From contig PFGS01000096.1 in NCBI GenBank assembly GCA_002783525.1, positions 1-29,995 on the forward strand: a DNA stretch of 29,995 nucleotides, in the 5' to 3' direction. Shown here piece by piece: positions 9,371 through 24,424 of this stretch (positions within the stretch are counted from its first letter, which is position 1; each line of letters begins with the position of its first letter). Both the position numbers and the translations under genes were made by a program. The notes below the pieces were generated by a model. That model was given only the letters and a program-made list of their open reading frames with translations, had not been told where the DNA came from and searched no databases. This DNA is from Ignavibacteriales bacterium CG12_big_fil_rev_8_21_14_0_65_30_8. Its GTDB lineage: Bacteria; Bacteroidota; Ignavibacteria; Ignavibacteriales; Ignavibacteriaceae.

Positions 9371-9985
9371 ATGATTGATTTAAATAATCTTTCCAAATTA
9401 AACAAGAAATTTTACTCAAAAGATGTAAACATTGTAGCTAAAAAATTACTAGGCAAAGTTTTAGTGCATAATATTGGCGAAACAAAGCTTGCAGGTATTA
9501 TTGTTGAAGTTGAAGCATACGAAGGTAAAACAGATAGAGCTGCTCACACATTTATTGGAAAAACTAAAAGAAATGAAATTATGTTTAACGAAGGCGGATA
9601 TTTATATGTGTATTTTACATATGGAGTTCATTTTTGCTGTAATGTTGTTACAGGCAAAAAGGATGAAGGAACCGCTGTTTTAATAAGGGGAATAGAGCCA
9701 ATTGTTGGAATTGATAAAATGGAAAAAAGTAGATTCGGTTCTAAAAATATACAAGCTAAAAAAATATATGATCTGACAAACGGACCCGGGAAAATTTGCC
9801 AGGCATTTCAAATAAATAAATCTCATTACGGATTTGATTTAACAGATGATAAAATATACTTGCTCAATTACAAAAAAATTAAAGACGAAAACATTATATG
9901 CACAACAAGAATTGGTATAAAAAAATCAATAGATTTACCTTGGCGTTATTATATTAAAGATAATCCATTTGTATCTAAAAAATGA
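9371..9985 (+). CDS. mpg: DNA-3-methyladenine glycosylase (AAG/MPG family)
   Basis: AKKLLGK, IVEVEAY, LYVYFTYGVHFC.NVV, AVLIRGIEP, NGPGK, RIGI..PWR motifs. Confidence 0.92.
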   Translation: MIDLNNLSKLNKKFYSKDVNIVAKKLLGKVLVHNIGETKLAGIIVEVEAYEGKTDRAAHTFIGKTKRNEIMFNEGGYLYVYFTYGVHFCCNVVTGKKDEGTAVLIRGIEPIVGIDKMEKSRFGSKNIQAKKIYDLTNGPGKICQAFQINKSHYGFDLTDDKIYLLNYKKIKDENIICTTRIGIKKSIDLPWRYYIKDNPFVSKK

Positions 9986-11010
9986 TCAAACCAAAAAATT
10001 TACTTATTATCCGAACTGACAGAATTGGTGATGTGGTTTTAACAGTACCTTTAGCTGAATTAATTAAAAAATATTATCCAGATTGTAAAATCACTTTTCT
10101 TGTAAGAAAATACACCAAAGAAATTTTATATAATCACCCGTTTATTGATGAAACAATTATAGCTAAAACAAAAGGAAACAAATTAACATTCTTTGAAAAT
10201 TATAAAATTCTTAAAAATAAAAACTTTGATACGGTGGTTGTAGTTAGTCCAAGTTTTATAATTTCACTTATTATTTTCTTATCTAATACTGAAAATAGAA
10301 TTGGAACAGGTTACAGATGGTATTCATTTTTATTTAATAAAAAAGTATTTGTTCACAGAAAATTTGCTGAAAAGCACGAGTTGGAATTTAACGTTGAATT
10401 ACTAAAAGAAATAGGTATTGATGAAATAATAAATTCGTCAAATGTGAAGTATTCTTTGCAAGTTAATACCAATAATAAAGAAAAAATAGAGAATCTTTTA
10501 AGAGTAAATAATATATTATTATCAAAACCAATTTTTATTATTCATCCAGGTAGCGGTGGCAGCTCAGTTGATTTACCTGCAAATAAATTCAAAGAGTTAA
10601 TACAAAAAATATTAACTGATTTTGATGTTAACATTATTATTACCGGAAGTAAGGAAGAAAAAATAATTTGTCAAAATTTAGTGGTTAATGATTCAATTTT
10701 TAATTTTACCGGAAAGTTAAGTTTATCTGAATTAATTTATTTAATTAATGAATGTAAATTATTTATTTCTAATTCTACCGGTCCTTTGCATATTGCTGCT
10801 GCTTTGAATAAAAATGTTGTAGGTTTTTATCCAAATTTATTGGCATGTTCTTATAAGAGATGGGGACCTTTTGGCTCAAAAACAAAGGTTTTTATACCTC
10901 AAAATGAATGTAAAAATTGTAAATTGGAACAGTGTTCATCAGAAGAATGTATGAATAATATCGATATAGATGATGTAATAAATTATATAAAAAATATAGA
11001 GAAAACATAA
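9982..11010 (+). CDS. GT9 glycosyltransferase (LPS heptosyltransferase WaaF/RfaF-like)
   Basis: LLIIRTDRIGDVVL, IIHPG, GKLSLSEL, ISNSTGPLHIAAA, RWGP; 4-nt overlap with mpg. Confidence 0.9.
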   Translation: MIKPKNLLIIRTDRIGDVVLTVPLAELIKKYYPDCKITFLVRKYTKEILYNHPFIDETIIAKTKGNKLTFFENYKILKNKNFDTVVVVSPSFIISLIIFLSNTENRIGTGYRWYSFLFNKKVFVHRKFAEKHELEFNVELLKEIGIDEIINSSNVKYSLQVNTNNKEKIENLLRVNNILLSKPIFIIHPGSGGSSVDLPANKFKELIQKILTDFDVNIIITGSKEEKIICQNLVVNDSIFNFTGKLSLSELIYLINECKLFISNSTGPLHIAAALNKNVVGFYPNLLACSYKRWGPFGSKTKVFIPQNECKNCKLEQCSSEECMNNIDIDDVINYIKNIEKT

Positions 11011-11021
11011 ATCAAAATAAT

Positions 11022-11834
11022 GTGAATAGAATGAAAGTTAAATTACAAATAGCATCTTTAGTATTAATAATATATTTAATTTCTACTCAATGTAGTTATG
11101 CACAATCTAAAGTAGATTCATTTAGAGTAATTGAAAATAACGCTTTTAAATTAGGTGAAAATCTTACTTTTAAAATTAAGTATGGTTTTGTTACTGCTGG
11201 TATTTCTAAAATGTATGTTAAAGATGAAAAGACATTATCCGGTAGAAAAGTTTATCATGTAATTTTTGAAGTAAATTCTGTTCCTAGTTTTGATTGGATT
11301 TATAAAGTACGAGATAGATACGAAACTTTTATTGATAAGGAAGGTCTTTTCCCGTGGAGGTTTGAACAGCATATTAGAGAGGGTGGATACAAAAGAGATT
11401 ATTCAGCATATTTTGATCAGAGAAATAATAAAGCATTTACAAGTGAAGGAATATTTGATATTCCAGAATATGTACACGATATTATTTCAGCTTTTTATCT
11501 TGCAAGACTTTTTGATTATTCAGATTTAAAAGAAAATGATGAAATTCATCTTAAGAATTTTAATAACGGTAAAACTTTTAACCTTGATGTTGTTTTTAGA
11601 GGCAGAGAAGAAATTGAAGTTCCGGCAGGTAAATTTAAATGTATAATTATTGAACCTTTGGTAAAAGGCGGTGGATTATTTAAAAGCGAGGGAAGTATTT
11701 ATATTTGGTTAACTGATGATTCTCTTAAAGTTCCTGTAAAAGTAAAATCAAAAATTGTTGTCGGTTCTATTGATGCAGTACTATCTGAATATAGCGGATT
11801 AGCAGGTGAAATTTATGCTAAAATTCCCGATTAA
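11022..11834 (+). CDS. DUF3108-family exported protein
   Basis: Signal peptide; F..GE.L.F.I.YG..AG, YKVRDRY.T, VPAGKFKC, IWLTDD..KVPVK..SKI.VGS..A.L pattern. Confidence 0.75.
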   Translation: MNRMKVKLQIASLVLIIYLISTQCSYAQSKVDSFRVIENNAFKLGENLTFKIKYGFVTAGISKMYVKDEKTLSGRKVYHVIFEVNSVPSFDWIYKVRDRYETFIDKEGLFPWRFEQHIREGGYKRDYSAYFDQRNNKAFTSEGIFDIPEYVHDIISAFYLARLFDYSDLKENDEIHLKNFNNGKTFNLDVVFRGREEIEVPAGKFKCIIIEPLVKGGGLFKSEGSIYIWLTDDSLKVPVKVKSKIVVGSIDAVLSEYSGLAGEIYAKIPD

Positions 11835-11902
11835 GACAACAAATTATTTCCATTTATAATAAATTTTTAGGAATTCCATTTTAAATTATATATTTTCTTT
11901 AT

Positions 11903-12874
11903 ATGGAAAAAAACCTTAATGAAGAAAACAATACTGACCAAAATTCTGATATAAATAGAGATGCTAGAATTACATTAAATGGTTTTGAACCGCAAATTTC
12001 TCCTATAACAGCAGCATTTATTGGATTAATAGGCGGCTTTTTTCTCTATCAGTTTGTTGGCGGATTATTAACTTTTATAATTTTTGGTTTTAATATTAAT
12101 GATGCCCATGTAAATGGCTTACGCATAATGACTATGCTGAGTCAGTTACTTTTTATTTTATTACCTGCCCTATTGTTCAGCAAATGGTTTTATAATGATT
12201 TAAATAGAATTCTAAAATTCAAAGCACCAGATTATAGAGAGATAATATTATTTATAATCGGTATTTTTATTCTCACTCCATTACTACAAAACTATGTTTC
12301 TATCCAGAATTATTTTATTAATAAAATGGCGGAAGTTTCTCCATTTATTAATTCTATAAAATCTTTATTAGATTCATTAAATAAATTAGTGGAAAATTCT
12401 TATCAAAATCTTTTGTCAACAAAAACTATATTGGATGCAATTTTTGTAATATTTGTAGTTTCTATTGTTCCGGCAGTTTCTGAAGAAATGATGTTCAGAG
12501 GTTTTATTCAAAGTAGTTTTGAATTAAAACTTAAAGCTAGGTGGGCAATTGTTATCACTGCAGTATTTTTTGGTTTATACCATTTTAATCCCTACGGACT
12601 GGTCCCGTTAATAATTTTAGGACTTTATTTTGGTTTTGCTGCTTATATGAGCCGCTCTATTTTTGTATCTATGATACTACATTTTACAAATAATTTTCTT
12701 GTCGTTATAATGTATTTTATTATTGGCGATAAAGATCTTATAGATTCTTCAGCTACCGGTAATATTGATGTTAGAATATCATTTTTTCTATTAATGATGT
12801 TCGGAGTTATGTTCATTGCTATAGTTTATTTTATATTCCTTTTTTATAAAAAGAAAAAAATTGAGATTATATAA
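11903..12874 (+). CDS. CPBP/Abi-family intramembrane glutamic endopeptidase
   Basis: Multi-TM; EEMMFRG, FFGLYH and HFTNN motifs. Confidence 0.88.
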   Translation: MEKNLNEENNTDQNSDINRDARITLNGFEPQISPITAAFIGLIGGFFLYQFVGGLLTFIIFGFNINDAHVNGLRIMTMLSQLLFILLPALLFSKWFYNDLNRILKFKAPDYREIILFIIGIFILTPLLQNYVSIQNYFINKMAEVSPFINSIKSLLDSLNKLVENSYQNLLSTKTILDAIFVIFVVSIVPAVSEEMMFRGFIQSSFELKLKARWAIVITAVFFGLYHFNPYGLVPLIILGLYFGFAAYMSRSIFVSMILHFTNNFLVVIMYFIIGDKDLIDSSATGNIDVRISFFLLMMFGVMFIAIVYFIFLFYKKKKIEII

Positions 12875-13203
12875 TGGCTGTATGTCCAAATTGCAAATAT
12901 GAATATGTAAAAGGGATAACTATTTGTCCTGATTGCAGAACAAATCTTGTCGATCCAAATTTACTAAAACAACCACCAGCATTAGAAGAAAAAGATTGGA
13001 AAATTATTTTTACTTCAGATCAAGAATATGAAATGCAGATGCTAAAAGATAATTTAGCAAGTGCAGGAATTGAAGCTATGATTTTTTCTCAAAAAGACAG
13101 AAATATACCAACACCAGGCGATCTTTCAATCATTAGTTTATTAGTTAGAAATGAATCTGTAGATGATGCTATAAATTTTATCAATGAAGTTTTAGGGGAA
13201 TAG
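12874..13203 (+). CDS. Zinc-ribbon plus DUF2007-like small protein
   Basis: CPNC..CPDC ribbon followed by W..IF....EYE..MLK..L.SAGI; TAATG overlap with the upstream gene. Confidence 0.7.
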   Translation: MAVCPNCKYEYVKGITICPDCRTNLVDPNLLKQPPALEEKDWKIIFTSDQEYEMQMLKDNLASAGIEAMIFSQKDRNIPTPGDLSIISLLVRNESVDDAINFINEVLGE

Positions 13204-13213
13204 ATAGTAATAA

Positions 13214-14038
13214 ATGACTTTTAGCAATACCTTCCTTCGTGTTTTAGTATCAGTAATTACAATTCCACTTATTCTTTTTATTTGTTATATAGGCGGAGTT
13301 GTATTCTTTATTTTCGTAATGTTTATTGCGTTGGTTTCATATTTTGAATTTACTTCGTTTATAAAAAAAATTGATATAAGTGTAAATTTTTGGGTTGGTT
13401 TTGCCGGTGTTTTGTTTTCACTTCTTAATAATAGATATCATTATTTAGACACATATTCTTTTGTGCTTCTATTTATGCTAATACTTGCTGCTTCAGAACT
13501 ATTCAGAAATGAAGGTTCTACTATAGCAAATATAGGTTCTACATTATTTGGAGTTATTTATTTAGGATTTTTTTCAAGTGCAATTATAGGTATTAGAGAA
13601 ATATTTTCACAAGTAGGAGGTCTATACACTAGAGGCGGTTTTATAATTATTTCAATGTTAGCAACTATTTGGATCTGCGACTCGGCTGCATTTTTTATTG
13701 GAACGGCTTATGGTAAACATAAATTATTTCCCAGAGTAAGCCCTAAAAAAAGCTGGGAGGGAGCTATCTCCGGTTTTATTTTTGCAATTGGAACTATGCT
13801 CTTAGCAAAAATATTAGTCCTGAATTTCTTTAGCTGGAGTACAGTAATAGCAATAGGATTTATAATTGGTGTTTTCGGTCAAATGGGGGATTTGATAGAA
13901 TCACTAATAAAAAGAACTGCAAATGTTAAAGACTCATCAAATCTTATTCCGGGTCACGGTGGAATTTTTGATAGATTTGACTCACTTCTATTTACTGCAC
14001 CAATAATATTTTTATATCTTACATACTTCAGTAAATAA
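13214..14038 (+). CDS. cdsA: Phosphatidate cytidylyltransferase
   Basis: IWICDSAAF, SPKKSWEG, GDLIESLIKR..KDS..LIPGHGGIFDRFDS. Confidence 0.95.
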   Translation: MTFSNTFLRVLVSVITIPLILFICYIGGVVFFIFVMFIALVSYFEFTSFIKKIDISVNFWVGFAGVLFSLLNNRYHYLDTYSFVLLFMLILAASELFRNEGSTIANIGSTLFGVIYLGFFSSAIIGIREIFSQVGGLYTRGGFIIISMLATIWICDSAAFFIGTAYGKHKLFPRVSPKKSWEGAISGFIFAIGTMLLAKILVLNFFSWSTVIAIGFIIGVFGQMGDLIESLIKRTANVKDSSNLIPGHGGIFDRFDSLLFTAPIIFLYLTYFSK

Positions 14039-14052
14039 AAATAATTTAGATC

Positions 14053-15348
14053 TTGAAAAAAAAAGAAACCGTAAATATAATTACGCTCGGGTGTTCAAAA
14101 AACACCGTTGATTCCGAGCGTTTGATGAAACAGATCAATTGTAATAATTTTAATTTAATTGATGATCCGAATAAAGCAGATACTTTAATTATAAACACCT
14201 GTGGTTTTATCGAAGCTGCAAAGGAAGAATCTATAAATACAATTCTTAACGCAGTTAAACAAAAAAAAGAAGGTAAGATAAAAAAAGTAATTGTTGCCGG
14301 ATGCCTGTCAGAAAGATATGCCGATGATTTAAAAGAAGAGATACCTGAAGTTGATGCTTTTTTTGGAACCGAAAAATATGAAGATATATTAAACGAAATT
14401 GGCGGAAAACTTAAAAGAGAACTTTTGGGTGAAAGGACTTTATCCGGTCCTCCTCATACAGCTTATTTAAAAATTTCTGAAGGATGTGACCACCCCTGCT
14501 CTTTTTGTGCCATTCCGCTTATGAGGGGTTTACATAAGTCAAAACCAATTGAAGTGCTTGTAAAAGAAGCCGAGTTTTTGGCAAAAAATAATACTAAAGA
14601 ACTAATATTAATAGCGCAGGATACAACAGATTACGGGAAAGATATTTATGGTGAAAGATGTCTGCATAAATTACTTTCAGAATTGAGTAAAATTGACGGA
14701 ATTAAATGGATTAGAGTAATGTATGCTTATCCATCTCATTTTCCCCAAGAAGTAATTAAAGAAATTGCTGAAAATCCTAAAATTTGCAATTATATTGACA
14801 TCCCTCTTCAACATATTTCCGATAGTGTGCTAAAATCAATGAGAAGAGGAGTAACATCTAATAAAATTAAAGAATTAATTACTGATTTTAGGACAAAAAT
14901 ACCAAATGTTGTAATAAGAACCACTTTTATAGTAGGTTATCCAAATGAAACCGAAAATGAATTTTATTTGTTATGTAAGTATATAGAAGAAGCAAAATTT
15001 GACAGAATAGGTGTATTTACTTTTTCAGTGGAAGAAAATACTTCGAGTTATATTCTTGGAAATCCCATTTCAGAAAAAGTTAAAGAAGAAAGAAAGAATA
15101 AATTAATGGAAATACAAAAAGATATTTCTCATGAAAGCAATCAAAAAATAGTTGGCAAAAATATGGATGTGCTTATTGAAAGGCAGGAAGGTGAATTTTA
15201 TGTGGGCCGCACTTATCGTGATGCACCTGAAGTTGATGGAGAAATACTTATACCAACAAATACTAAAAAAATAATTTTTGGTAATTTTTATAAAGTTAAA
15301 ATTTATGATTGCAATGAATATGATCTATTCGGAAAGATTGTGTTTTAA
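14053..15348 (+). CDS. rimO: Ribosomal protein S12 methylthiotransferase RimO
   Basis: TLGCSKNTVDSE, NTCGFIEAAKEES, SEGCDHPCSFCAIP, IAQDTT.YG, DAPEVDG, TRAM; TTG start. Confidence 0.95.
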   Translation: MKKKETVNIITLGCSKNTVDSERLMKQINCNNFNLIDDPNKADTLIINTCGFIEAAKEESINTILNAVKQKKEGKIKKVIVAGCLSERYADDLKEEIPEVDAFFGTEKYEDILNEIGGKLKRELLGERTLSGPPHTAYLKISEGCDHPCSFCAIPLMRGLHKSKPIEVLVKEAEFLAKNNTKELILIAQDTTDYGKDIYGERCLHKLLSELSKIDGIKWIRVMYAYPSHFPQEVIKEIAENPKICNYIDIPLQHISDSVLKSMRRGVTSNKIKELITDFRTKIPNVVIRTTFIVGYPNETENEFYLLCKYIEEAKFDRIGVFTFSVEENTSSYILGNPISEKVKEERKNKLMEIQKDISHESNQKIVGKNMDVLIERQEGEFYVGRTYRDAPEVDGEILIPTNTKKIIFGNFYKVKIYDCNEYDLFGKIVF

Positions 15349-15358
15349 TGGAGGAAAG

Positions 15359-16645
15359 ATGAAAATTATAACTAGATATTTTATTACTGCAATAATATTG
15401 TTTACTTCAATAATAGTTGGGCAAACTCATAAAACTCCGGTAAAAACAGACCTCGGAGTAGATAATTCTTTTGCACAAGATTTTTTAAATTATAAAACAG
15501 AAAAAGATGGGCAGACTAAAGTAGAAGCTTTTATTCAGGTTCCATATAATAATATTAAATTTATTAAAAGTGATGACGGCTTTTTAGGAAGATATACCAT
15601 AACTTTATCTTTTTTTGATGAAAAAGGAGAAAAATTATTTGCTGAGAAAATATGGAATGAAAAAATATTTATTAAAGATTATAAAACTACAACCTCACGT
15701 TTTACTTATAACATAAGTAGAAAGACTTTTACAGTTAGACCGGGAATGTATGTAATAAGAACAGCTATTGCTGACAAAGAAACTAAAAAAGAGTTAGTAA
15801 AAACTTTGAAGTTTAATGTGCATGATTTCTCAAATGAAGTTGATATAAGCAGTATTTTATTTATTGAAAACAATAACAGTAATGATATTAGCAAAACTAT
15901 AGTTCCAAATGTTACAAGAAATGTTGCTAATCAGCACTTTGGAGTTCCAATTTATTACGAGATTTATTCAAACAAAAAAGATACCGTTTCAATTAATTAT
16001 AAAATATCTGATAAAGAGGAAGAAGATATTTTTACTGAAACTGTAAGTTCTAAAATCGATTCCGGAGTTAATCATATATTATATACAGCTAAAGACACAA
16101 CAATTAGCTTAGGTACATATCAGTTTGAAATATCAATTTCCAATTCTAATAATGAAATGTTAGCGCAATCTAAAAAATTATTTATTTCAAGATGGGCAGG
16201 AGCCCCAACAAATATTGAAGATCTGGAAGCAGCCATTGACCAATTAGAATATATTGCAAGCGATGAACAAATCGATTATATAAATGAAGGCAAAACCAAG
16301 GAAGAAAAAATAAAAAGATATAGAGAGTTTTGGAAATCAAAAGATCCTAATCCGGCAGATGAAGATAACGAAGTGTTTAATGAATACTATAGAAGAATAA
16401 ATTTAGCAAATATCAATTTTTCGCACTATAACAGTCCCGGATGGAGAACGGACAGAGGAATGGTTTATATTGTTTTAGGGCCGCCAAACAATATTGAGAA
16501 CCATCCATTTGATAGCTATAATAAACCTTATGTTGTTTGGGAATATTATGACTTACTTAGAAATTTCACTTTTGTGGATGTAACCGGATTTGGTGATTAC
16601 AGATTAGCAAATCCATTGGATTTTGATTATTACAGATACAGATGA
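15359..16645 (+). CDS. GWxTD domain-containing exported protein
   Basis: GWRTDRGMVYIVLGPP motif with FW..KDP.P upstream; signal peptide from ATG 15359, which has a GGAGG SD (the ORF track start at 15278 overlaps rimO). Confidence 0.88.
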   Translation: MKIITRYFITAIILFTSIIVGQTHKTPVKTDLGVDNSFAQDFLNYKTEKDGQTKVEAFIQVPYNNIKFIKSDDGFLGRYTITLSFFDEKGEKLFAEKIWNEKIFIKDYKTTTSRFTYNISRKTFTVRPGMYVIRTAIADKETKKELVKTLKFNVHDFSNEVDISSILFIENNNSNDISKTIVPNVTRNVANQHFGVPIYYEIYSNKKDTVSINYKISDKEEEDIFTETVSSKIDSGVNHILYTAKDTTISLGTYQFEISISNSNNEMLAQSKKLFISRWAGAPTNIEDLEAAIDQLEYIASDEQIDYINEGKTKEEKIKRYREFWKSKDPNPADEDNEVFNEYYRRINLANINFSHYNSPGWRTDRGMVYIVLGPPNNIENHPFDSYNKPYVVWEYYDLLRNFTFVDVTGFGDYRLANPLDFDYYRYR

Positions 16646-17607
16646 TACTTACTGTTACTTTAAATCCTTTATTAGAAAGAAGGTACTTTTTTAAAAAAGT
16701 AACTGAAGGAAAAGGCAACCGTGCAACTGATCAAGATTTTAGAGCAGGTGGAAAAGGAATTAATGTAAGCCGGCAGTTAAATGTTCTTAAAGTAAAAAAT
16801 CATGTCTTCACTTTTTTCGGTGGAAAAAACGGAAAACTATTCAAAGAAATTCTCTCCAGCGAAAATATCGATTATTCTTCAATTCAAACTAAAACAGAAA
16901 CTAGAGACGGAACAGTTACAGTAAATAATAGCTCTAATTCTGTAACAACATTTTTTGGAATAAATTCTAAAATAACAAAAGAAGAAGTAGCAGCTTTTAA
17001 AACAAAACTGGAAAAAATGATAGTGAATTGTGAAATCGTCGTTTTCTCCGGTAGTTCACCCTGTGAAAACACAGATTCAATTTTCCCATTCGGAATTGCA
17101 AAAGCTAATGAGTATAATAAAATATCTGTATGTGATACTTACGGAAGGCATTTAGAAAATTGTATCTATAGCACGCCAACTATAATTCATAATAATATCT
17201 CTGAAATAGAAAACACTTTTAATATTTCATTAAGTAATGAAAAAGAGAAATTAGATTATCTTCGATCTTTATATAAAAAAAATATAAAGCAGGTATATTT
17301 AACCGATGGAAGTAATCCATTTTATTGTTCAAATTTTGATTATCATTTTAAGATCACTCCACCGCAAATTAAAACTGTTGATGCTTTAGGAAGCGGCGAC
17401 AGTTTTACGGCAGGAATTATTTATACTTGGCATAATAAACTTACTTTTGAAGAAGGATTAAAAATTGCTACTTCTTTGGGAGTGCTAAACGCTGCATCTG
17501 CCAACACTTCCCAAGCTGATTTTATCCAGGCTCAAAAAATATTTAAAAATATTATTGTAAATTCTGTTGGTAAAAAAATGATAAAAATTGATGCAACACC
17601 AACTTAA
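16642..17607 (+). CDS. PfkB-family sugar kinase (1-phosphofructokinase/LacC-like)
   Basis: MILTVTLNP, AGGKGINVSR, DALGSGDSF anion-hole motif. Confidence 0.88.
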   Translation: MILTVTLNPLLERRYFFKKVTEGKGNRATDQDFRAGGKGINVSRQLNVLKVKNHVFTFFGGKNGKLFKEILSSENIDYSSIQTKTETRDGTVTVNNSSNSVTTFFGINSKITKEEVAAFKTKLEKMIVNCEIVVFSGSSPCENTDSIFPFGIAKANEYNKISVCDTYGRHLENCIYSTPTIIHNNISEIENTFNISLSNEKEKLDYLRSLYKKNIKQVYLTDGSNPFYCSNFDYHFKITPPQIKTVDALGSGDSFTAGIIYTWHNKLTFEEGLKIATSLGVLNAASANTSQADFIQAQKIFKNIIVNSVGKKMIKIDATPT

Positions 17608-19357
17608 AATAATATTCATACTTTCTCTTTTTTTAATTTCATCCTTTTTCCCTCAAACAATTGAATCAATAAATTTAGCCGGTAACAAGAATTTCTCACA
17701 CTCTGATTACCAGGAATGGATAGCACTGCAATCCGGGCAAACTGTTTTTGAAGGAATAAAGGACACAATACTTAATAGAATTGCTTTTAACTTAAATCAA
17801 AGAGGATATTTCCATTATACATTTAACTCAGTCAAATTAGATGAAATAGATGAAAAAAATAGTGTTGAAATTAATCTTGAATTAGATGAAAATGAACCGA
17901 CATATATAAATAAAATTAATTTGGATAGAGTTAATAAAATAGATTCAGAATTTGTCTATTCTGAGTTCAATAATTTTGAAGGGAAAATATTAAATAAATA
18001 TGAATTGGAAAATTCTATTACTGATATTCTGGCTTATTATGAAAATTCAGGCAATCCTTTTTCTGTCGTAAAAATAAACTCGCTTAACTTTTTTTATGAT
18101 TCCTTGAACACAGAATATAAAGTTGATATTAATATATCAATAGATACAAAAAAGAAAAGCACTATTGATGAAATTGAAATTACAGGTAATGAAAAAACTA
18201 AAGATTACGTATTAGTTAGAGAGTTAAGAATACAACCGGGGCAGGAATACTCGCAGCAAAATATTAATATTTTACCCGAGAGATTAAATAAACTGGGCTT
18301 CTTTCAACCAATTGAAAAGCCGGAATATTATATTAATTCAAAAGGGAGAGGTGTTTTATCTTTTAAAGTAAAAGAAATTCAAACAAATAATTTTGACGGA
18401 ATTATTGGCTATATACCAAGCACTGCTCCAAATGAGTCGGGTTATGTTACAGGATTAGTAGATTTGAGTTTAAGAAATCTTTTTGGTACGGGAAGAGCTG
18501 CATCTATTAAATGGCAAAGATTAAATCGTTCATCTCAAATATTAGATCTTAAATATCTTGAACCATGGATATTTGGATTTCCTATAAATATCTCAACAAG
18601 AATATTCCAAAGAAAAGAAGATTCATCCTATGTGCAGAGAACTTTTGACGTTTCACTTCAATATCTTGCAACCGAAGTTTTATCAGCAGGTGTTACACTT
18701 TCTTTAGAATCTGTAATTCCATCTGATAATTTAACAAACCAATTCACTGTTTTTAATTCAACAATAGTAAATACTGAATTGAATTTAAAACTTGATACTA
18801 GAAATGATCTATACACACCAACAAACGGAATTCAATTTATTAATTCATATACTTTCAGACAAAAAACAATAAACGGACCGGCACAATTTATAGCACCCGG
18901 TACACCAACAAAAATCAATCTCCAAAAATTTGAATTATCATTCGATGCTTACTTTTCTTTTATAAACAGACAAGTATTAGCTCTTAAATTACATGGCGGA
19001 GAATTACGCGGACCATTTTTTGAGATCAGTGATCTTTTCAGAATGGGTGGTTTTAATTCACTAAGAGGATATAAAGAGGACCAATTTTTAGGCTCAAGAG
19101 TAATTTGGGGAAATTTGGAATACAGATTTTTACTTACTAACAGAACTTACTTTTTTGTTTTTATGGATAACGGTTATTTTTTAAGGAAGGAAGATGTAGA
19201 CAGAAACATACCTATAATTGAAGAATACAAAATAGGATATGGTTTAGGAATAAATCTGGAAACAGGACTAGGGATATTGGGCATTAGCTTTGCTCTCGGG
19301 CAAGGAGATTCATTTTCAGACGGGAAAATACACTTCGGAATCATCAATAATTTTTAA
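17591..19357 (+). CDS. Omp85 (BamA/TamA-like) outer-membrane protein with POTRA domains
   Basis: Signal peptide; POTRA motifs (IEITGNEKTKDYVLVREL); barrel with NLFGTGR, SLRGY loop motif and C-terminal Phe. Start is 17588 (TTG) or 17591 (ATG). Confidence 0.85.
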   Translation: MQHQLKIIFILSLFLISSFFPQTIESINLAGNKNFSHSDYQEWIALQSGQTVFEGIKDTILNRIAFNLNQRGYFHYTFNSVKLDEIDEKNSVEINLELDENEPTYINKINLDRVNKIDSEFVYSEFNNFEGKILNKYELENSITDILAYYENSGNPFSVVKINSLNFFYDSLNTEYKVDINISIDTKKKSTIDEIEITGNEKTKDYVLVRELRIQPGQEYSQQNINILPERLNKLGFFQPIEKPEYYINSKGRGVLSFKVKEIQTNNFDGIIGYIPSTAPNESGYVTGLVDLSLRNLFGTGRAASIKWQRLNRSSQILDLKYLEPWIFGFPINISTRIFQRKEDSSYVQRTFDVSLQYLATEVLSAGVTLSLESVIPSDNLTNQFTVFNSTIVNTELNLKLDTRNDLYTPTNGIQFINSYTFRQKTINGPAQFIAPGTPTKINLQKFELSFDAYFSFINRQVLALKLHGGELRGPFFEISDLFRMGGFNSLRGYKEDQFLGSRVIWGNLEYRFLLTNRTYFFVFMDNGYFLRKEDVDRNIPIIEEYKIGYGLGINLETGLGILGISFALGQGDSFSDGKIHFGIINNF

Positions 19358-21051: not shown

Positions 21052-22221
21052 TTATACTACAAAAACTTTTGCAATTTCTTTTAACAATGATGGTTTATTT
21101 TTTAATGCTATCATAAAAAATCTACCAACTGTTCTTTTTTTCTCGGGTAATTTTAACATAGATTCAATAAGGTTATTAAATTGTTCGTCTGTAAAATTAA
21201 AAAGACCGTCTTTAATCTTATCTAAAAAATCGTGTTTCTTACCTCTTAATTTCTTCCATTCTTTATGATAATTATTAATATAGTTTAAATCATTATTTTT
21301 TATTGATTGTGCTGCTAATCTTCCTGCAATACTTGCACCGATCATTCCACTGGAAATTCCTCCTCCGCTTAGCGGATTTACTTGTCGTGCTGCATCACCA
21401 ACAAGCATAATTCCGGGCGCTGCCATTTTTTCTAAAGCTACAACGGACGGAACTCCGCCTGCAACTTGTGTTAGAATATTAGCAGTTGGAAAAAAATTTT
21501 CTAAATTATTATTTAAATATGAAAGAGCAGATCTTTTTTTACCAACTCCTCCGCTCACTCCAAGCCCAATATTTGCCGTACCTTTTCCTTTTGGAAAAAC
21601 CCAAAAATATCCTTCAGGAGCAACTTCTTTACCAAAGTAAAAGAATAAAGCATCCTGATCACATTTTACATTTGAAGCTGTAACCTGGAAACAAGATTCC
21701 ATATCTCTAAAATCAATATGTGTTTCTAATCCTGCCCACCGTCCTACTCTTGATTCAACTCCATCAGCACCTATAACAATTTTACATTTTATTTGTTTTT
21801 GTTCACCTCTAAATTCAAATTTTACTCCTGCTACTTTTCCGTTTTCTTTTATAAGATCATTAACATAAGCCCGGGTTAAAATTTCTGCACCGGCAACAGA
21901 TGCAGTTTTTGCAAGTTCATAATCAAATATTCTTCTTTCAAGCATGTAGCCTTCAACTTTTCCTAAATTGATCACAACCTTTTTTCCGTTTGGAGCAACA
22001 AAACCAAATTTTGTAATTTCTGCATTTATCCATCTTTTATCAGGTTTAATAAATGCCTCTAATCCTTCACGACTAATTGCTTCGCCGCATCTTACCGGGT
22101 AACCTACATCTCTGTCTTTTTCTAAAACTAATACAAAAGCTCCATTTTGAGCAGCATATCTTGCTGCAATTGAGCCTGCAGGCCCGGCACCAACTACAAT
22201 TATATCATATTCTTCTTTCAT
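21052..22221 (-). CDS. Geranylgeranyl reductase family flavoprotein (archaeal DGGGPL-reductase-like)
   Basis: VGAGPAG, PVRCGEA, RRIFD, IGADG, GYFWVFPKG (YxWxFP), LVGDAA..VNPLSGGGI. Confidence 0.88.
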   Translation of the reverse strand: MKEEYDIIVVGAGPAGSIAARYAAQNGAFVLVLEKDRDVGYPVRCGEAISREGLEAFIKPDKRWINAEITKFGFVAPNGKKVVINLGKVEGYMLERRIFDYELAKTASVAGAEILTRAYVNDLIKENGKVAGVKFEFRGEQKQIKCKIVIGADGVESRVGRWAGLETHIDFRDMESCFQVTASNVKCDQDALFFYFGKEVAPEGYFWVFPKGKGTANIGLGVSGGVGKKRSALSYLNNNLENFFPTANILTQVAGGVPSVVALEKMAAPGIMLVGDAARQVNPLSGGGISSGMIGASIAGRLAAQSIKNNDLNYINNYHKEWKKLRGKKHDFLDKIKDGLFNFTDEQFNNLIESMLKLPEKKRTVGRFFMIALKNKPSLLKEIAKVFVV

Positions 22222-22226
22222 AAAAA

Positions 22227-22451
22227 TTATTTTTCTAAAACACCTTCTTTATTAAATTTTATAACTTCAATAGGACACGACCAAATACATTTTGCACAAT
22301 TTGTACAACGTGGATCAATTATATATATCTCGGCTTCTTTTAATTCAATTGCATCTTCTGGACAAACACCAACACAACATCCGCAAAAATCGCATTTGTT
22401 TGGAAGAATATCTATTAATAGTTTTCCCGTTTTAGCTTGTCTGTAATTCAT
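22227..22451 (-). CDS. 2x[4Fe-4S] ferredoxin
   Basis: CDFCGCCVGVCP and CTNCAKCIWSCP. ATG at 22451 chosen; the true start may be further downstream, near LLIDILPNK. Ends 5 nt before the GGR start. Confidence 0.88.
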   Translation of the reverse strand: MNYRQAKTGKLLIDILPNKCDFCGCCVGVCPEDAIELKEAEIYIIDPRCTNCAKCIWSCPIEVIKFNKEGVLEK

Positions 22452-22600
22452 TTTTATTGGTAAAATTGGAATAAGTTGAATAGGAAGATAAGAAAGCAAA
22501 AAATTATATCAAAGAATGACATATAATAATTAAGTTACAATTATTTTGTAAATTTAATTAAGATTATTAGTTTGAATATAAGCTAAAACATTAAAAATTA

Positions 22601-23434
22601 ATGGATAAAATTAAAGCAGTTTTTAAAATTATTAGACCACTGAATATTTTAATTACTTTTATTTCTGTAATTGTGGGTGGAATAATTGCATTAAAATCAA
22701 ATTTTATTCCACAATCCCTTCTTTTTGCTGCATTAGCAGAGGCGCTCACATTTTCTTCCGGCAATATTATAAATGATATATTCGATCTTGAAATTGATAA
22801 AATAAACAGACCCGAAAGAGTTTTACCGAGCAGAATTATTACTATAAATTTAGCCGGAATTATTTATTTGTTGTTTGCTCTATTGGCAGTTTATATATCA
22901 TATAATATTAATCCAACAGTTTTTAAGATTATTCTAATTACAAACATCATTTTATTTTTATATTCTTTTATAATTAAGAAAATGATTTTGATTGATAATG
23001 TAATTGTATCTGTAATAGTAGGTTCTGCTTTTATTGTCGGTTCAGCATCAGTTGGAAATATCTCTGCCGGTTACATTCCTTTTGTATTTGCACTCTTGAT
23101 CAATTTTACACGAGAAATAGTAAAAGATATAGAAGATATAAAAGGTGATTCAGCAAGTGGAATCAAAAGTTTTCCGTCAGTATTCGGATTTGGTAATTCT
23201 AAAATTATAATTTTACTTTCAACAATTGTATTAATTATAATAACATTTTATCCTTATATTTTTGACATATATGGTTTTGTTTATCTTCTAATAATATTAA
23301 TAGTTGTTGATCCATTTTTAGTTTTTATTTTGATTAAATTATTTAAAAATGACACGATTGAAAATTTTAAAAAAGTAAGTATATACTTAAAAGTAACTAT
23401 GCTTTTTGGTTTAATAGCAATTTATTTAGGTTGA
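22601..23434 (+). CDS. UbiA-superfamily prenyltransferase, DGGGP synthase (geranylgeranylglycerol-phosphate geranylgeranyltransferase)-like
   Basis: IIRPLN start, NDIFDLEIDKINRPER and REIVKDIEDIKGD aspartate-rich motifs, about 8-9 TM segments. Confidence 0.8.
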   Translation: MDKIKAVFKIIRPLNILITFISVIVGGIIALKSNFIPQSLLFAALAEALTFSSGNIINDIFDLEIDKINRPERVLPSRIITINLAGIIYLLFALLAVYISYNINPTVFKIILITNIILFLYSFIIKKMILIDNVIVSVIVGSAFIVGSASVGNISAGYIPFVFALLINFTREIVKDIEDIKGDSASGIKSFPSVFGFGNSKIIILLSTIVLIIITFYPYIFDIYGFVYLLIILIVVDPFLVFILIKLFKNDTIENFKKVSIYLKVTMLFGLIAIYLG

Positions 23435-24057
23435 TGAAAAATTTTGATAATACTTTTCTTACTGATAAAGTAAAAATAATCGCCGGCTGTGATGAAGCAG
23501 GCAGAGGACCACTTGCAGGTCCGGTTGTTGCAGCTTCAGTAATATTTAAAAATGATTTATTTATTGATGGAATAAATGATTCAAAAAAATTAACAGAAAA
23601 ACAAAGAGAAGAATTATTCTCCCAAATTTTAGAAAAATCTAAATGCGTTGGTGTGTCAGTTATATCTCACGGCATTATTGATAAAATCAATATTCTTCAA
23701 GCATCACTTTTGGGAATGAAAACAGCAACCAATCGTTTAAAAATAAAACCTAACTTAGTTCTAATTGACGGAAATAAATGTTTTAATTCGGAAATAAATA
23801 ATATTGCTATCGTAAGTGGTGACTCAAGATCATTCTCAATTGCAGCAGCTTCTATAGTTGCTAAAGTAACTAGGGATAATATTATGAGACGATTGGATAA
23901 ATATTTCCCCCAATATTTATGGGCAAAGAATAAAGGATATCCAACCAAAGAACACATTGAAGCAGTAAAATTATACGGGCCAACACCATTGCACAGAAAG
24001 ACTTTCTTAAAAAATATTTTACCTGAATATTATAATTCTATTTTAGAATTAAATTGA
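23434..24057 (+). CDS. rnhB: Ribonuclease HII
   Basis: GCDEAGRGPLAGPV, DSKKL, LIDGN, SIAAASIVAKVTRD, HRKTF; TGATG overlap with the UbiA gene. Confidence 0.95.
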   Translation: MKNFDNTFLTDKVKIIAGCDEAGRGPLAGPVVAASVIFKNDLFIDGINDSKKLTEKQREELFSQILEKSKCVGVSVISHGIIDKINILQASLLGMKTATNRLKIKPNLVLIDGNKCFNSEINNIAIVSGDSRSFSIAAASIVAKVTRDNIMRRLDKYFPQYLWAKNKGYPTKEHIEAVKLYGPTPLHRKTFLKNILPEYYNSILELN

Positions 24058-24061
24058 AGAA

Positions 24062-24424
24062 ATGACTGATAAAAAGAAAATTGGAAATAAAGGAGAAGAA
24101 TTAGCTGCTGAATTTTTAGAAAAGATAAATTATAAAATAATAGAAAAAAATTATAGATTCGGTAAAGGTGAAATAGATATTGTTTGTGAGGATCCCAATA
24201 ATAAAAATCTTGTTTTTGTAGAAGTAAAATCCAGAACCAATTTAAATTTTGGCGATCCGATTTATGCTTTAACTAAAAGAAAAATGGTACAACTTAGAAA
24301 AATTGCTGATGCTTATATTTACGAAAAAAAAATTGATAATATTGATTGCAGATTTGATGTGGTTACCATTTTGTATAAGCCAAAAGAAAAACCGGATATC
24401 AAACATTACATTAATGCATTTTAA
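24062..24424 (+). CDS. yraN: YraN family (UPF0102) endonuclease-like protein
   Basis: GNKGEELAA.FL, GEIDIV, FVEVKSR, RFDVV. Confidence 0.9.
   Translation: MTDKKKIGNKGEELAAEFLEKINYKIIEKNYRFGKGEIDIVCEDPNNKNLVFVEVKSRTNLNFGDPIYALTKRKMVQLRKIADAYIYEKKIDNIDCRFDVVTILYKPKEKPDIKHYINAF

Follow-up and report, generated by a model that had tools for sequence, protein, structure and literature searches.

The genes discussed here lie in a stretch of DNA of 29,995 nucleotides, referred to below as the window, which is contig C235 of a bacterial metagenome-assembled genome (MAG; the source genome, G000) of 1.99 Mb in 307 contigs that is 82% complete. Near-identical homologues of the window proteins carry the names Ignavibacteriales bacterium or Ignavibacteria bacterium. 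Groundwater and aquifer metagenomes contain DNA of the locus; the runs that hold it were DNA only, in a look-up that covered runs of any kind and included no search aimed at RNA. On one strand, a ferredoxin gene lies directly upstream of a gene for a geranylgeranyl reductase (GGR), and on the other strand, across a short divergent spacer, lies a gene for a prenyltransferase of the UbiA family that resembles digeranylgeranylglyceryl phosphate synthase (DGGGPS), the enzyme of the second ether bond. No named cultured species was among the top 120 homologues of either the UbiA protein or the GGR. On genomic evidence, this is probably a locus for two late steps in the synthesis of an isoprenoid diether lipid of archaeal type by an Ignavibacteriales bacterium. 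Its features are the following:

21052-22221, minus strand: GGR, predicted archaeal lipid type, FAD-dependent, 389 aa (PF22578, TIGR02032, PDB 3OZ2)
22227-22451, minus strand: 2x[4Fe-4S] ferredoxin, 74 aa from the ATG (Fer4_7), probable electron donor of the GGR
22452-22600, no strand: divergent intergenic region of 149 bp between the ferredoxin and UbiA genes
22601-23434, plus strand: UbiA prenyltransferase, predicted DGGGPS type, 277 aa (PF01040, PDB 6M31)

All three open reading frames lie where the original prediction had placed them, with 5 nt between the ferredoxin stop and the GGR start, and the divergent spacer, which it had put at about 150 bp, measures 149 bp. The proteins match their families strongly, at levels that chance does not explain. 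The longest open reading frame of the ferredoxin begins at a TTG at 22499, and an alignment of 23 relatives favours the ATG or a still shorter core. Three species of the genus share an almost identical stretch of about 75 nt next to the ferredoxin start (window 22452-22530); the remaining spacer diverges in the alignment. This conserved segment upstream of the ferredoxin may function as promoter, 5′ leader or operator; scanning the 149-bp spacer for promoters and terminators gave consensus-like matches only, with no excess over shuffled sequences.

The UbiA protein (PF01040, 3.4e-38) has as its best PDB match the DGGGPS of Methanocaldococcus jannaschii (MjDGGGPS, 6M31), at 7e-33 and 118 bits over the full length, compared with 2.6e-12 (50 bits) for chlorophyll synthase and 3.6e-4 (24 bits) for AfUbiA. 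Its five best NCBIfam models are all of the DGGGPS type, at 116-181 bits, followed by ChlG at 67 bits, with MenA at 19. The catalytic residues of MjDGGGPS are N62/D66/D70, Y125/K130 and D180/D183/D187 (review PMC9385802), and they align with N58/D62/D66, Y121/K126 and D176/D179/D183 of the window protein, which keeps all three motifs (NDIFDLEID at 58-66, Y121/K126 and KDIEDIKGD at 175-183, located by script); the tunnel residue S171 of MjDGGGPS, on the other hand, aligns with Ile167. Public annotation of the homologues reads geranylgeranylglycerol-phosphate geranylgeranyltransferase. Judged by its sequence, the UbiA protein is a canonical prenyltransferase of the DGGGPS type, as had been predicted, and a separate MenA is encoded in the same genome.

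The GGR matches PF22578 (GGR_cat) at 3.6e-25 and passes the TIGR02032 (GG-red-SF) cut-off of 159 bits with a score of 228. Among PDB entries it matches best the lipid GGR of Thermoplasma acidophilum (3OZ2), at 6e-69 and over the full length, compared with about 1e-29 for the Sulfolobus GGR. The motifs quoted in the original prediction, YxWxFP, PxRCG and RxxFD in the GGR and the Asp-rich motifs of the UbiA protein, were all located by script; in the GGR we find GAGPAG at 11-16, VRCGE at 43-47, RRIFD at 96-100, YFWVFP at 205-210, VGDAA at 274-278 and GGGI at 286-289, and the catalytic Cys45 is present; all catalytic motifs of the Thermoplasma enzyme are kept. Scores for BchP/ChlP fall well short of their cut-offs (TIGR02023, 138 vs 343 bits; TIGR02028, 70 vs 505 bits). 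The combined scores and motifs identify the protein as a predicted GGR of the archaeal lipid type.

Other GGR-family genes were encountered in these searches. A second candidate in the source genome, on contig C198 (L053:2274-5194; 122 bits, below the cut-off), has the look of an SrsC-type flavoprotein and was rejected as a lipid GGR; it lies beside a type III polyketide synthase gene (DpgA-like, 173 bits) and a methyltransferase-like open reading frame, a layout that resembles SrsABC-type phenolic-lipid clusters. The idea that GGR is confined to this class within the Bacteroidota was also rejected, since members of GG-red-SF above the cut-off turn up in many families of the phylum outside it. 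One genus of family f6 has a tandem duplication of the GGR gene (L055:2297-4688 in G232, and G070:C63:100966-103357).

The ferredoxin (Fer4_7, 1.1e-10) carries two CxxCxxCxxxCP motifs, at residues 20-31 and 49-60, and none of its eight cluster cysteines varies across 23 relatives. All 25 relatives examined have it along with the GGR, and in 23 of them its gene lies directly upstream of the GGR gene; in G019 the ferredoxin gene is 1.5 kb from the GGR gene, and in G232 a ferritin-like gene is inserted between the ferredoxin and the GGRs. Identity to the window copy ranges from 52 to 92% for the ferredoxin and from 54 to 85% for the GGR, the ferredoxin being at least as conserved as the GGR in all but one relative. 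A structural model of the ferredoxin-GGR complex scored an ipSAE (interaction prediction score from aligned errors) of 0.92 in all three runs, while the best of three controls scored 0.00; that mark was attained by 58 of 80 solved complexes and by 2 of 110 mismatched pairs, a calibration that applies only roughly because our own alignments were used. In the modelled interface, the cluster-binding loops of the ferredoxin lie against GGR residues 35-44, adjoining the catalytic Cys45. The model supports a predicted binding of the ferredoxin to the GGR, and the ferredoxin is probably the electron donor of the reductase.

A comparable arrangement is known in Methanosarcina acetivorans, where the GGR works with a ferredoxin encoded next to it (Isobe et al. 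2014, cited through PMC7852524 and PMC10821996). We compared the window with ten named archaeal genomes, reached by an archaeal 16S pattern and searched with the GGR and UbiA proteins. The closest GGRs in Methanosarcina, Methanoculleus, Archaeoglobaceae, Methanomassiliicoccus, Methanocellaceae and the euryarchaeon G240 are 36-41% identical to the window GGR, and immediately upstream of each of them these six euryarchaeal genomes encode a dicluster ferredoxin of 57-65 aa that is 36-43% identical to the window ferredoxin. Bathyarchaeia, Sulfolobales, Calditenuaceae and Haloferax gave best GGR matches of just 25-30% identity, with no ferredoxin found next to them. As in M. acetivorans, the window has a small 2x[4Fe-4S] ferredoxin gene directly upstream of a lipid-type GGR, and in the Methanosarcina genome examined the ferredoxin upstream of the GGR is 41% identical to that of the window and the GGRs 39-41%. 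The two pairs differ in that the host of the window pair is bacterial, the window ferredoxin has about 10 extra N-terminal residues, and the activity of the window pair is a predicted one. The Thermoplasma GGR aligns over the full length but reportedly runs on NADPH in vitro (PMC10821996), in contrast to the window GGR with its paired ferredoxin.

Phylogenies had been proposed as a check on both proteins. In a 64-row tree the UbiA protein groups with its bacterial homologues and the Sulfolobales DGGGPS in a clade of 41 rows; the support for this clade is only 83 in the Shimodaira-Hasegawa-like approximate likelihood ratio test (SH-aLRT), and the backbone is poorly resolved. [quoted passage not shown] In the more careful GGR tree, from which five long-branch rows were left out, the Ignavibacteria form a clade with support 100/99, and the split from the Sulfolobus-type GGRs is likewise 100/99. 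The Ignavibacteria, the ferredoxin-linked euryarchaeal GGRs and a clade of paralogues emerge together from a three-way polytomy, and sisterhood of the Ignavibacteria with the ferredoxin-linked clade is not rejected (approximately unbiased test, p 0.32). The homologous ferredoxin upstream of the closest euryarchaeal GGRs argues that the window cassette is of the M. acetivorans type, and a euryarchaeal origin of the ferredoxin-GGR cassette is plausible from these comparisons.

One Archaeoglobaceae MAG (L195, L181) offers a parallel to the locus as a whole. In it, the genes for a DGGGPS-type UbiA protein, a geranylgeranylglyceryl phosphate synthase (GGGPS) and an arginine decarboxylase, ordered [DGGGPS-type UbiA <- GGGPS <- arginine decarboxylase], are divergent from [ferredoxin -> GGR], so that a DGGGPS-type UbiA operon diverges from a ferredoxin-GGR operon over a short spacer as it does in the window. 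The archaeal cluster, which is a genuine lipid cluster, differs in that its UbiA side adds GGGPS (PcrB, 261 bits) and the arginine decarboxylase, and identities to the window proteins are only 25-36%.

Across 41 relatives from the same order, the UbiA orthologue, the PcrB-family GGGPS and the GGR for the most part occur jointly or are jointly missing. Among 48 genomes of the class that are at least 90% complete, taken from an even sample of the phylum, 28 contain all three and the remaining 20 contain none of them (thresholds E ≤ 1e-40 for GGR, E ≤ 1e-15 for PcrB and E ≤ 4.5e-36 for the UbiA orthologue); we give these counts without a statistic because the relatives are not independent. The 28/20 split runs mostly by family; family f3 is mixed (7/13), and several independent losses or gains are therefore implied. 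Physical linkage is also found. In G000, G003, G004, G006, G010 and G033 the ferredoxin-GGR pair and the UbiA gene are immediate divergent neighbours, and in G104 the pair adjoins the UbiA gene in the same orientation; in eight genomes of families f6 and f9 the pair is about 10 kb from the UbiA gene.

Taken together, the genes suggest the following pathway. A GGGPS encoded elsewhere, in what is an assembly gap here, would make geranylgeranylglyceryl phosphate, to which the UbiA protein would add the second geranylgeranyl chain as a DGGGPS. The bacterial CDP-diglyceride synthase CdsA would then probably activate the product, and the FAD-dependent GGR would saturate the chains with electrons from the ferredoxin encoded 5 nt upstream, mirroring the ferredoxin-GGR pair of M. 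acetivorans. CdsA is encoded in the window itself:

13214-14038, plus strand: CdsA (CDP-diglyceride synthase; PF01148, 5.3e-59)

By analogy, this enzyme would activate the diether phosphate without the archaeal CarS, CdsA activation having been shown for E. coli in work cited by PMC7852524. We infer the substrates, the product, the glycerol stereochemistry and whether the lipid would form the bulk or a minor share of the membrane.

Several observations weigh against this pathway. The first concerns GGGPS, which the original prediction had noted as absent from the window and had proposed to look for in the genome: no PcrB-family GGGPS was found in the source genome, an 82%-complete MAG. The gene is present in all six congeners, and the copy in G004 passes the TIGR01769 equivalog model with 213 bits against a cut-off of 162. 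In G004 a response regulator gene and a gene for a 407-aa protein bound the segment of about 6 kb that contains it. The orthologues of these two flanking genes in the source genome sit at contig ends, the first at the very start of C289 and the second at the very end of C274, both oriented with the missing segment beyond the contig ends, and for none of the seven intervening G004 genes was an orthologue found elsewhere in the source genome. Because the flanking genes lie at these contig ends in that orientation and all seven intervening genes are lacking, we conclude that GGGPS is predicted to be missing through an assembly gap and not through gene loss. The second point is that many relatives show no linkage of the three genes: in the single-contig genomes G008 and G132, for instance, they are hundreds of kb apart. 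Third, both proteins fall below the strictest family models. The UbiA protein scores 181 vs 269 bits for PRK12884 and 169 vs 296 bits for PRK12882, and the GGR scores 260 vs 780 bits for NF041160 and 178 vs 580 bits for NF041080, the NCBIfam equivalogs of the DGGGPL reductase. The latter two models are lineage-specific, e.g. for Thermoplasmatales, and the GGR passes the superfamily model only. The only UbiA-family match in the Sulfolobales genome is likewise below threshold (186 bits for PRK12884, 155 for PRK12882), which we read as a sign that the two UbiA models are narrow rather than as evidence against membership.

The low equivalog scores do leave room for an explanation in which the UbiA protein prenylates an acceptor other than GGGP and the GGR saturates the chain of a quinone or polyprenol, in a MenJ-like or dolichol-like role. 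Sequence is a poor guide to UbiA subfamilies, and the source genome makes menaquinone by the classical pathway, judging from its menB-menA-menC cluster. Moreover, GGR paralogues adjoin non-DGGGPS UbiA paralogues in two archaea, a distant GGR paralogue in Methanosarcina (L198:50-2175) and a second ferredoxin-GGR copy in the euryarchaeon G240 (L208:1328-3989), which suggests archaeal reductase-prenyltransferase pairs for other prenylated products. However, the true MenA of the source genome is encoded separately, in the menaquinone cluster on contig C297 (L058:594-3344; 318 bits vs a cut-off of 264), and no UbiA-family gene other than this MenA and the window UbiA was found in the genome. The window UbiA matches MjDGGGPS far better than AfUbiA, and the GGR is not MenJ by score, at 83 bits against a cut-off of 700 (NF045655), compared with its 260 bits for the lipid-GGR model. 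Distribution argues in the same direction. In the 48 class genomes, 14 have both GGR and MenA, 14 GGR only, 12 MenA only and 8 neither, and many GGR-positive genomes of the class have no match to TIGR00751 (MenA), while GGR coincides exactly with GGGPS. Since the presence of GGR does not track that of MenA, a MenJ-like role, which the original prediction had raised as its alternative, is contradicted, and we regard a product of this other kind as quite unlikely.

The remaining points against a complete archaeal-type pathway concern its other steps, for which the original prediction had also proposed genome searches. Glycerol-1-phosphate (G1P) dehydrogenase was not found in a PF13685 search of the source genome and its congeners: the matches were weak (28-40 bits) and were rejected, the sole match in the source genome being AroB (TIGR01357, 360 bits). 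CarS (PF01864) was found in 0 of 41 genomes. The search for a geranylgeranyl pyrophosphate (GGPP) synthase returned one polyprenyl synthase, a fragment only, at a contig end of the source genome, so that the supply of GGPP is predicted only. Lastly, the literature searched held no report of archaeol-type lipids from Ignavibacteria. Because no G1P dehydrogenase was found, the glycerol stereochemistry is a prediction. The earlier suggestion of a saturated archaeol-like lipid thus draws support from genomics, through the protein families, the pairing of ferredoxin and GGR and the co-distribution of the genes, and lipid production remains at the level of prediction together with the stereochemistry. 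The gaps at G1P dehydrogenase and CarS match those reported for Cloacimonetes and most FCB phyla (PMC7852524, PMC6431249).

The same gaps could also mean that the genes are active and make a minor or specialised lipid, based on glycerol-3-phosphate (G3P), partly unsaturated or without a headgroup, and formed under particular conditions, instead of an archaeol-like membrane phospholipid. GGGPS and DGGGPS tolerate G3P-based substrates (PMC9385802 and PMC7852524), which, with no G1P dehydrogenase, CarS or report of archaeol from Ignavibacteria found, would suit such a lipid. On the other hand, the strict co-inheritance of the three genes and the conservation of the ferredoxin (52-92% identity) point to a complete pathway that is maintained, and CdsA is available for activation. 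We consider a minor lipid of this kind unlikely, and it would refine the archaeal-type diether pathway rather than contradict it. A salvage or degradation of environmental archaeal lipids by reverse reactions was suggested for FCB genomes that lack G1P dehydrogenase by Coleman et al. 2019 (PMC6431249), and an organism from groundwater and aquifer communities, in which no G1P dehydrogenase was found, might live in that way. However, a ferredoxin-driven reductase that saturates chains has no obvious catabolic role, no catabolic genes are linked to the locus, and the Cloacimonetes homologues were biosynthetic in E. coli (PMC7852524). We regard salvage as very improbable, and the archaeal-type diether lipid pathway as the explanation best carried by these data.

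The presence of GGGPS and DGGGPS in FCB bacteria, on which the original prediction drew, is published, and it extends to Ignavibacteria. Coleman et al. 2019 (PMC6431249) list Ignavibacteria among 12 FCB phyla with GGGPS and DGGGPS orthologues, and Villanueva et al. 2021 (PMC7852524) describe Cloacimonetes enzymes that are active in E. coli and euryarchaeal-like GGRs in the same MAGs. The window therefore resembles the Ca. Cloacimonetes and wider FCB set in having the same three enzyme families within the same superphylum, in likewise missing G1P dehydrogenase and CarS, and in having CdsA as the presumed activator. Unlike in Ca. Cloacimonetes, where GGGPS and DGGGPS are co-localised, in the window DGGGPS is linked to ferredoxin-GGR and GGGPS is elsewhere; among bacteria, Villanueva et al. 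find GGGPS-DGGGPS co-localisation only in Cloacimonetes. The locus thus adds one more well-supported case of a trait that has been described in related bacteria, and it is not a new kind of system. What it adds, with none of it mentioned in the parts of PMC6431249 and PMC7852524 considered, is the dedicated ferredoxin, the linkage of DGGGPS to GGR, the exact three-way co-distribution and the Archaeoglobaceae parallel.

Downstream of the UbiA gene, two more genes follow on the same strand:

23431-24057, plus strand: RNase HII (PF01351, 1.1e-37)
24062-24424, plus strand: YraN-like gene, directly after RNase HII

The string UbiA-RNase HII-YraN is kept across the class, in the same order in G004, G006, G010, G033, G104, G142 and G232, and the RNase HII and YraN-like genes are probably unrelated in function to the UbiA gene. 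The order ferredoxin-GGR-RNase HII is found in Methanoculleus and in the euryarchaeon G240 (L180:134-2983, L199:820-2828), and the order ferredoxin-GGR-UbiA-RNase HII in G104; the archaeal and Ignavibacteria RNase HII proteins are only 26-29% identical, and their recurrence beside GGR or UbiA may be coincidence. On the other side of the locus, a MarR gene is convergent to the GGR gene and is kept within the genus. An envelope block at window positions 9982-19357, with genes for a GT9 heptosyltransferase, DUF3108, an Rce1-like protein, DUF2007, CdsA, a MiaB-like protein, GWxTD and Omp85, is shared in synteny by this genus and a GC-rich family from the same class (L055:4794-14553, G232); relative to that family, the window block has an extra PfkB kinase, YceI, nitroreductase and MarR. 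In G232, the same envelope block, CdsA included, separates the ferredoxin-GGR pair from the UbiA gene.

Going beyond the locus, it is possible, and we offer it tentatively, that gene-positive Ignavibacteria make fully saturated archaeol-type diether phospholipids in vivo and so have a natural mixed membrane. The set would be of mosaic origin, FCB/crenarchaeal-like GGGPS and DGGGPS having been joined to a euryarchaeal-type ferredoxin-GGR cassette, and would be inherited and lost as a unit. Whether living bacteria build archaeal-type lipids into their membranes matters for the 'lipid divide' and for thinking about early membranes, a question that the locus leaves unanswered. It does add the detail that the chain-saturating step of the Ignavibacteria has a ferredoxin of its own and is often physically linked to the enzyme of the second ether bond, and the three genes are retained or lost jointly, as would be expected if they formed one working pathway. 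Members of the class are in culture and, if the mixed-membrane reading is true, the 'lipid divide' would be directly testable in a native bacterium.

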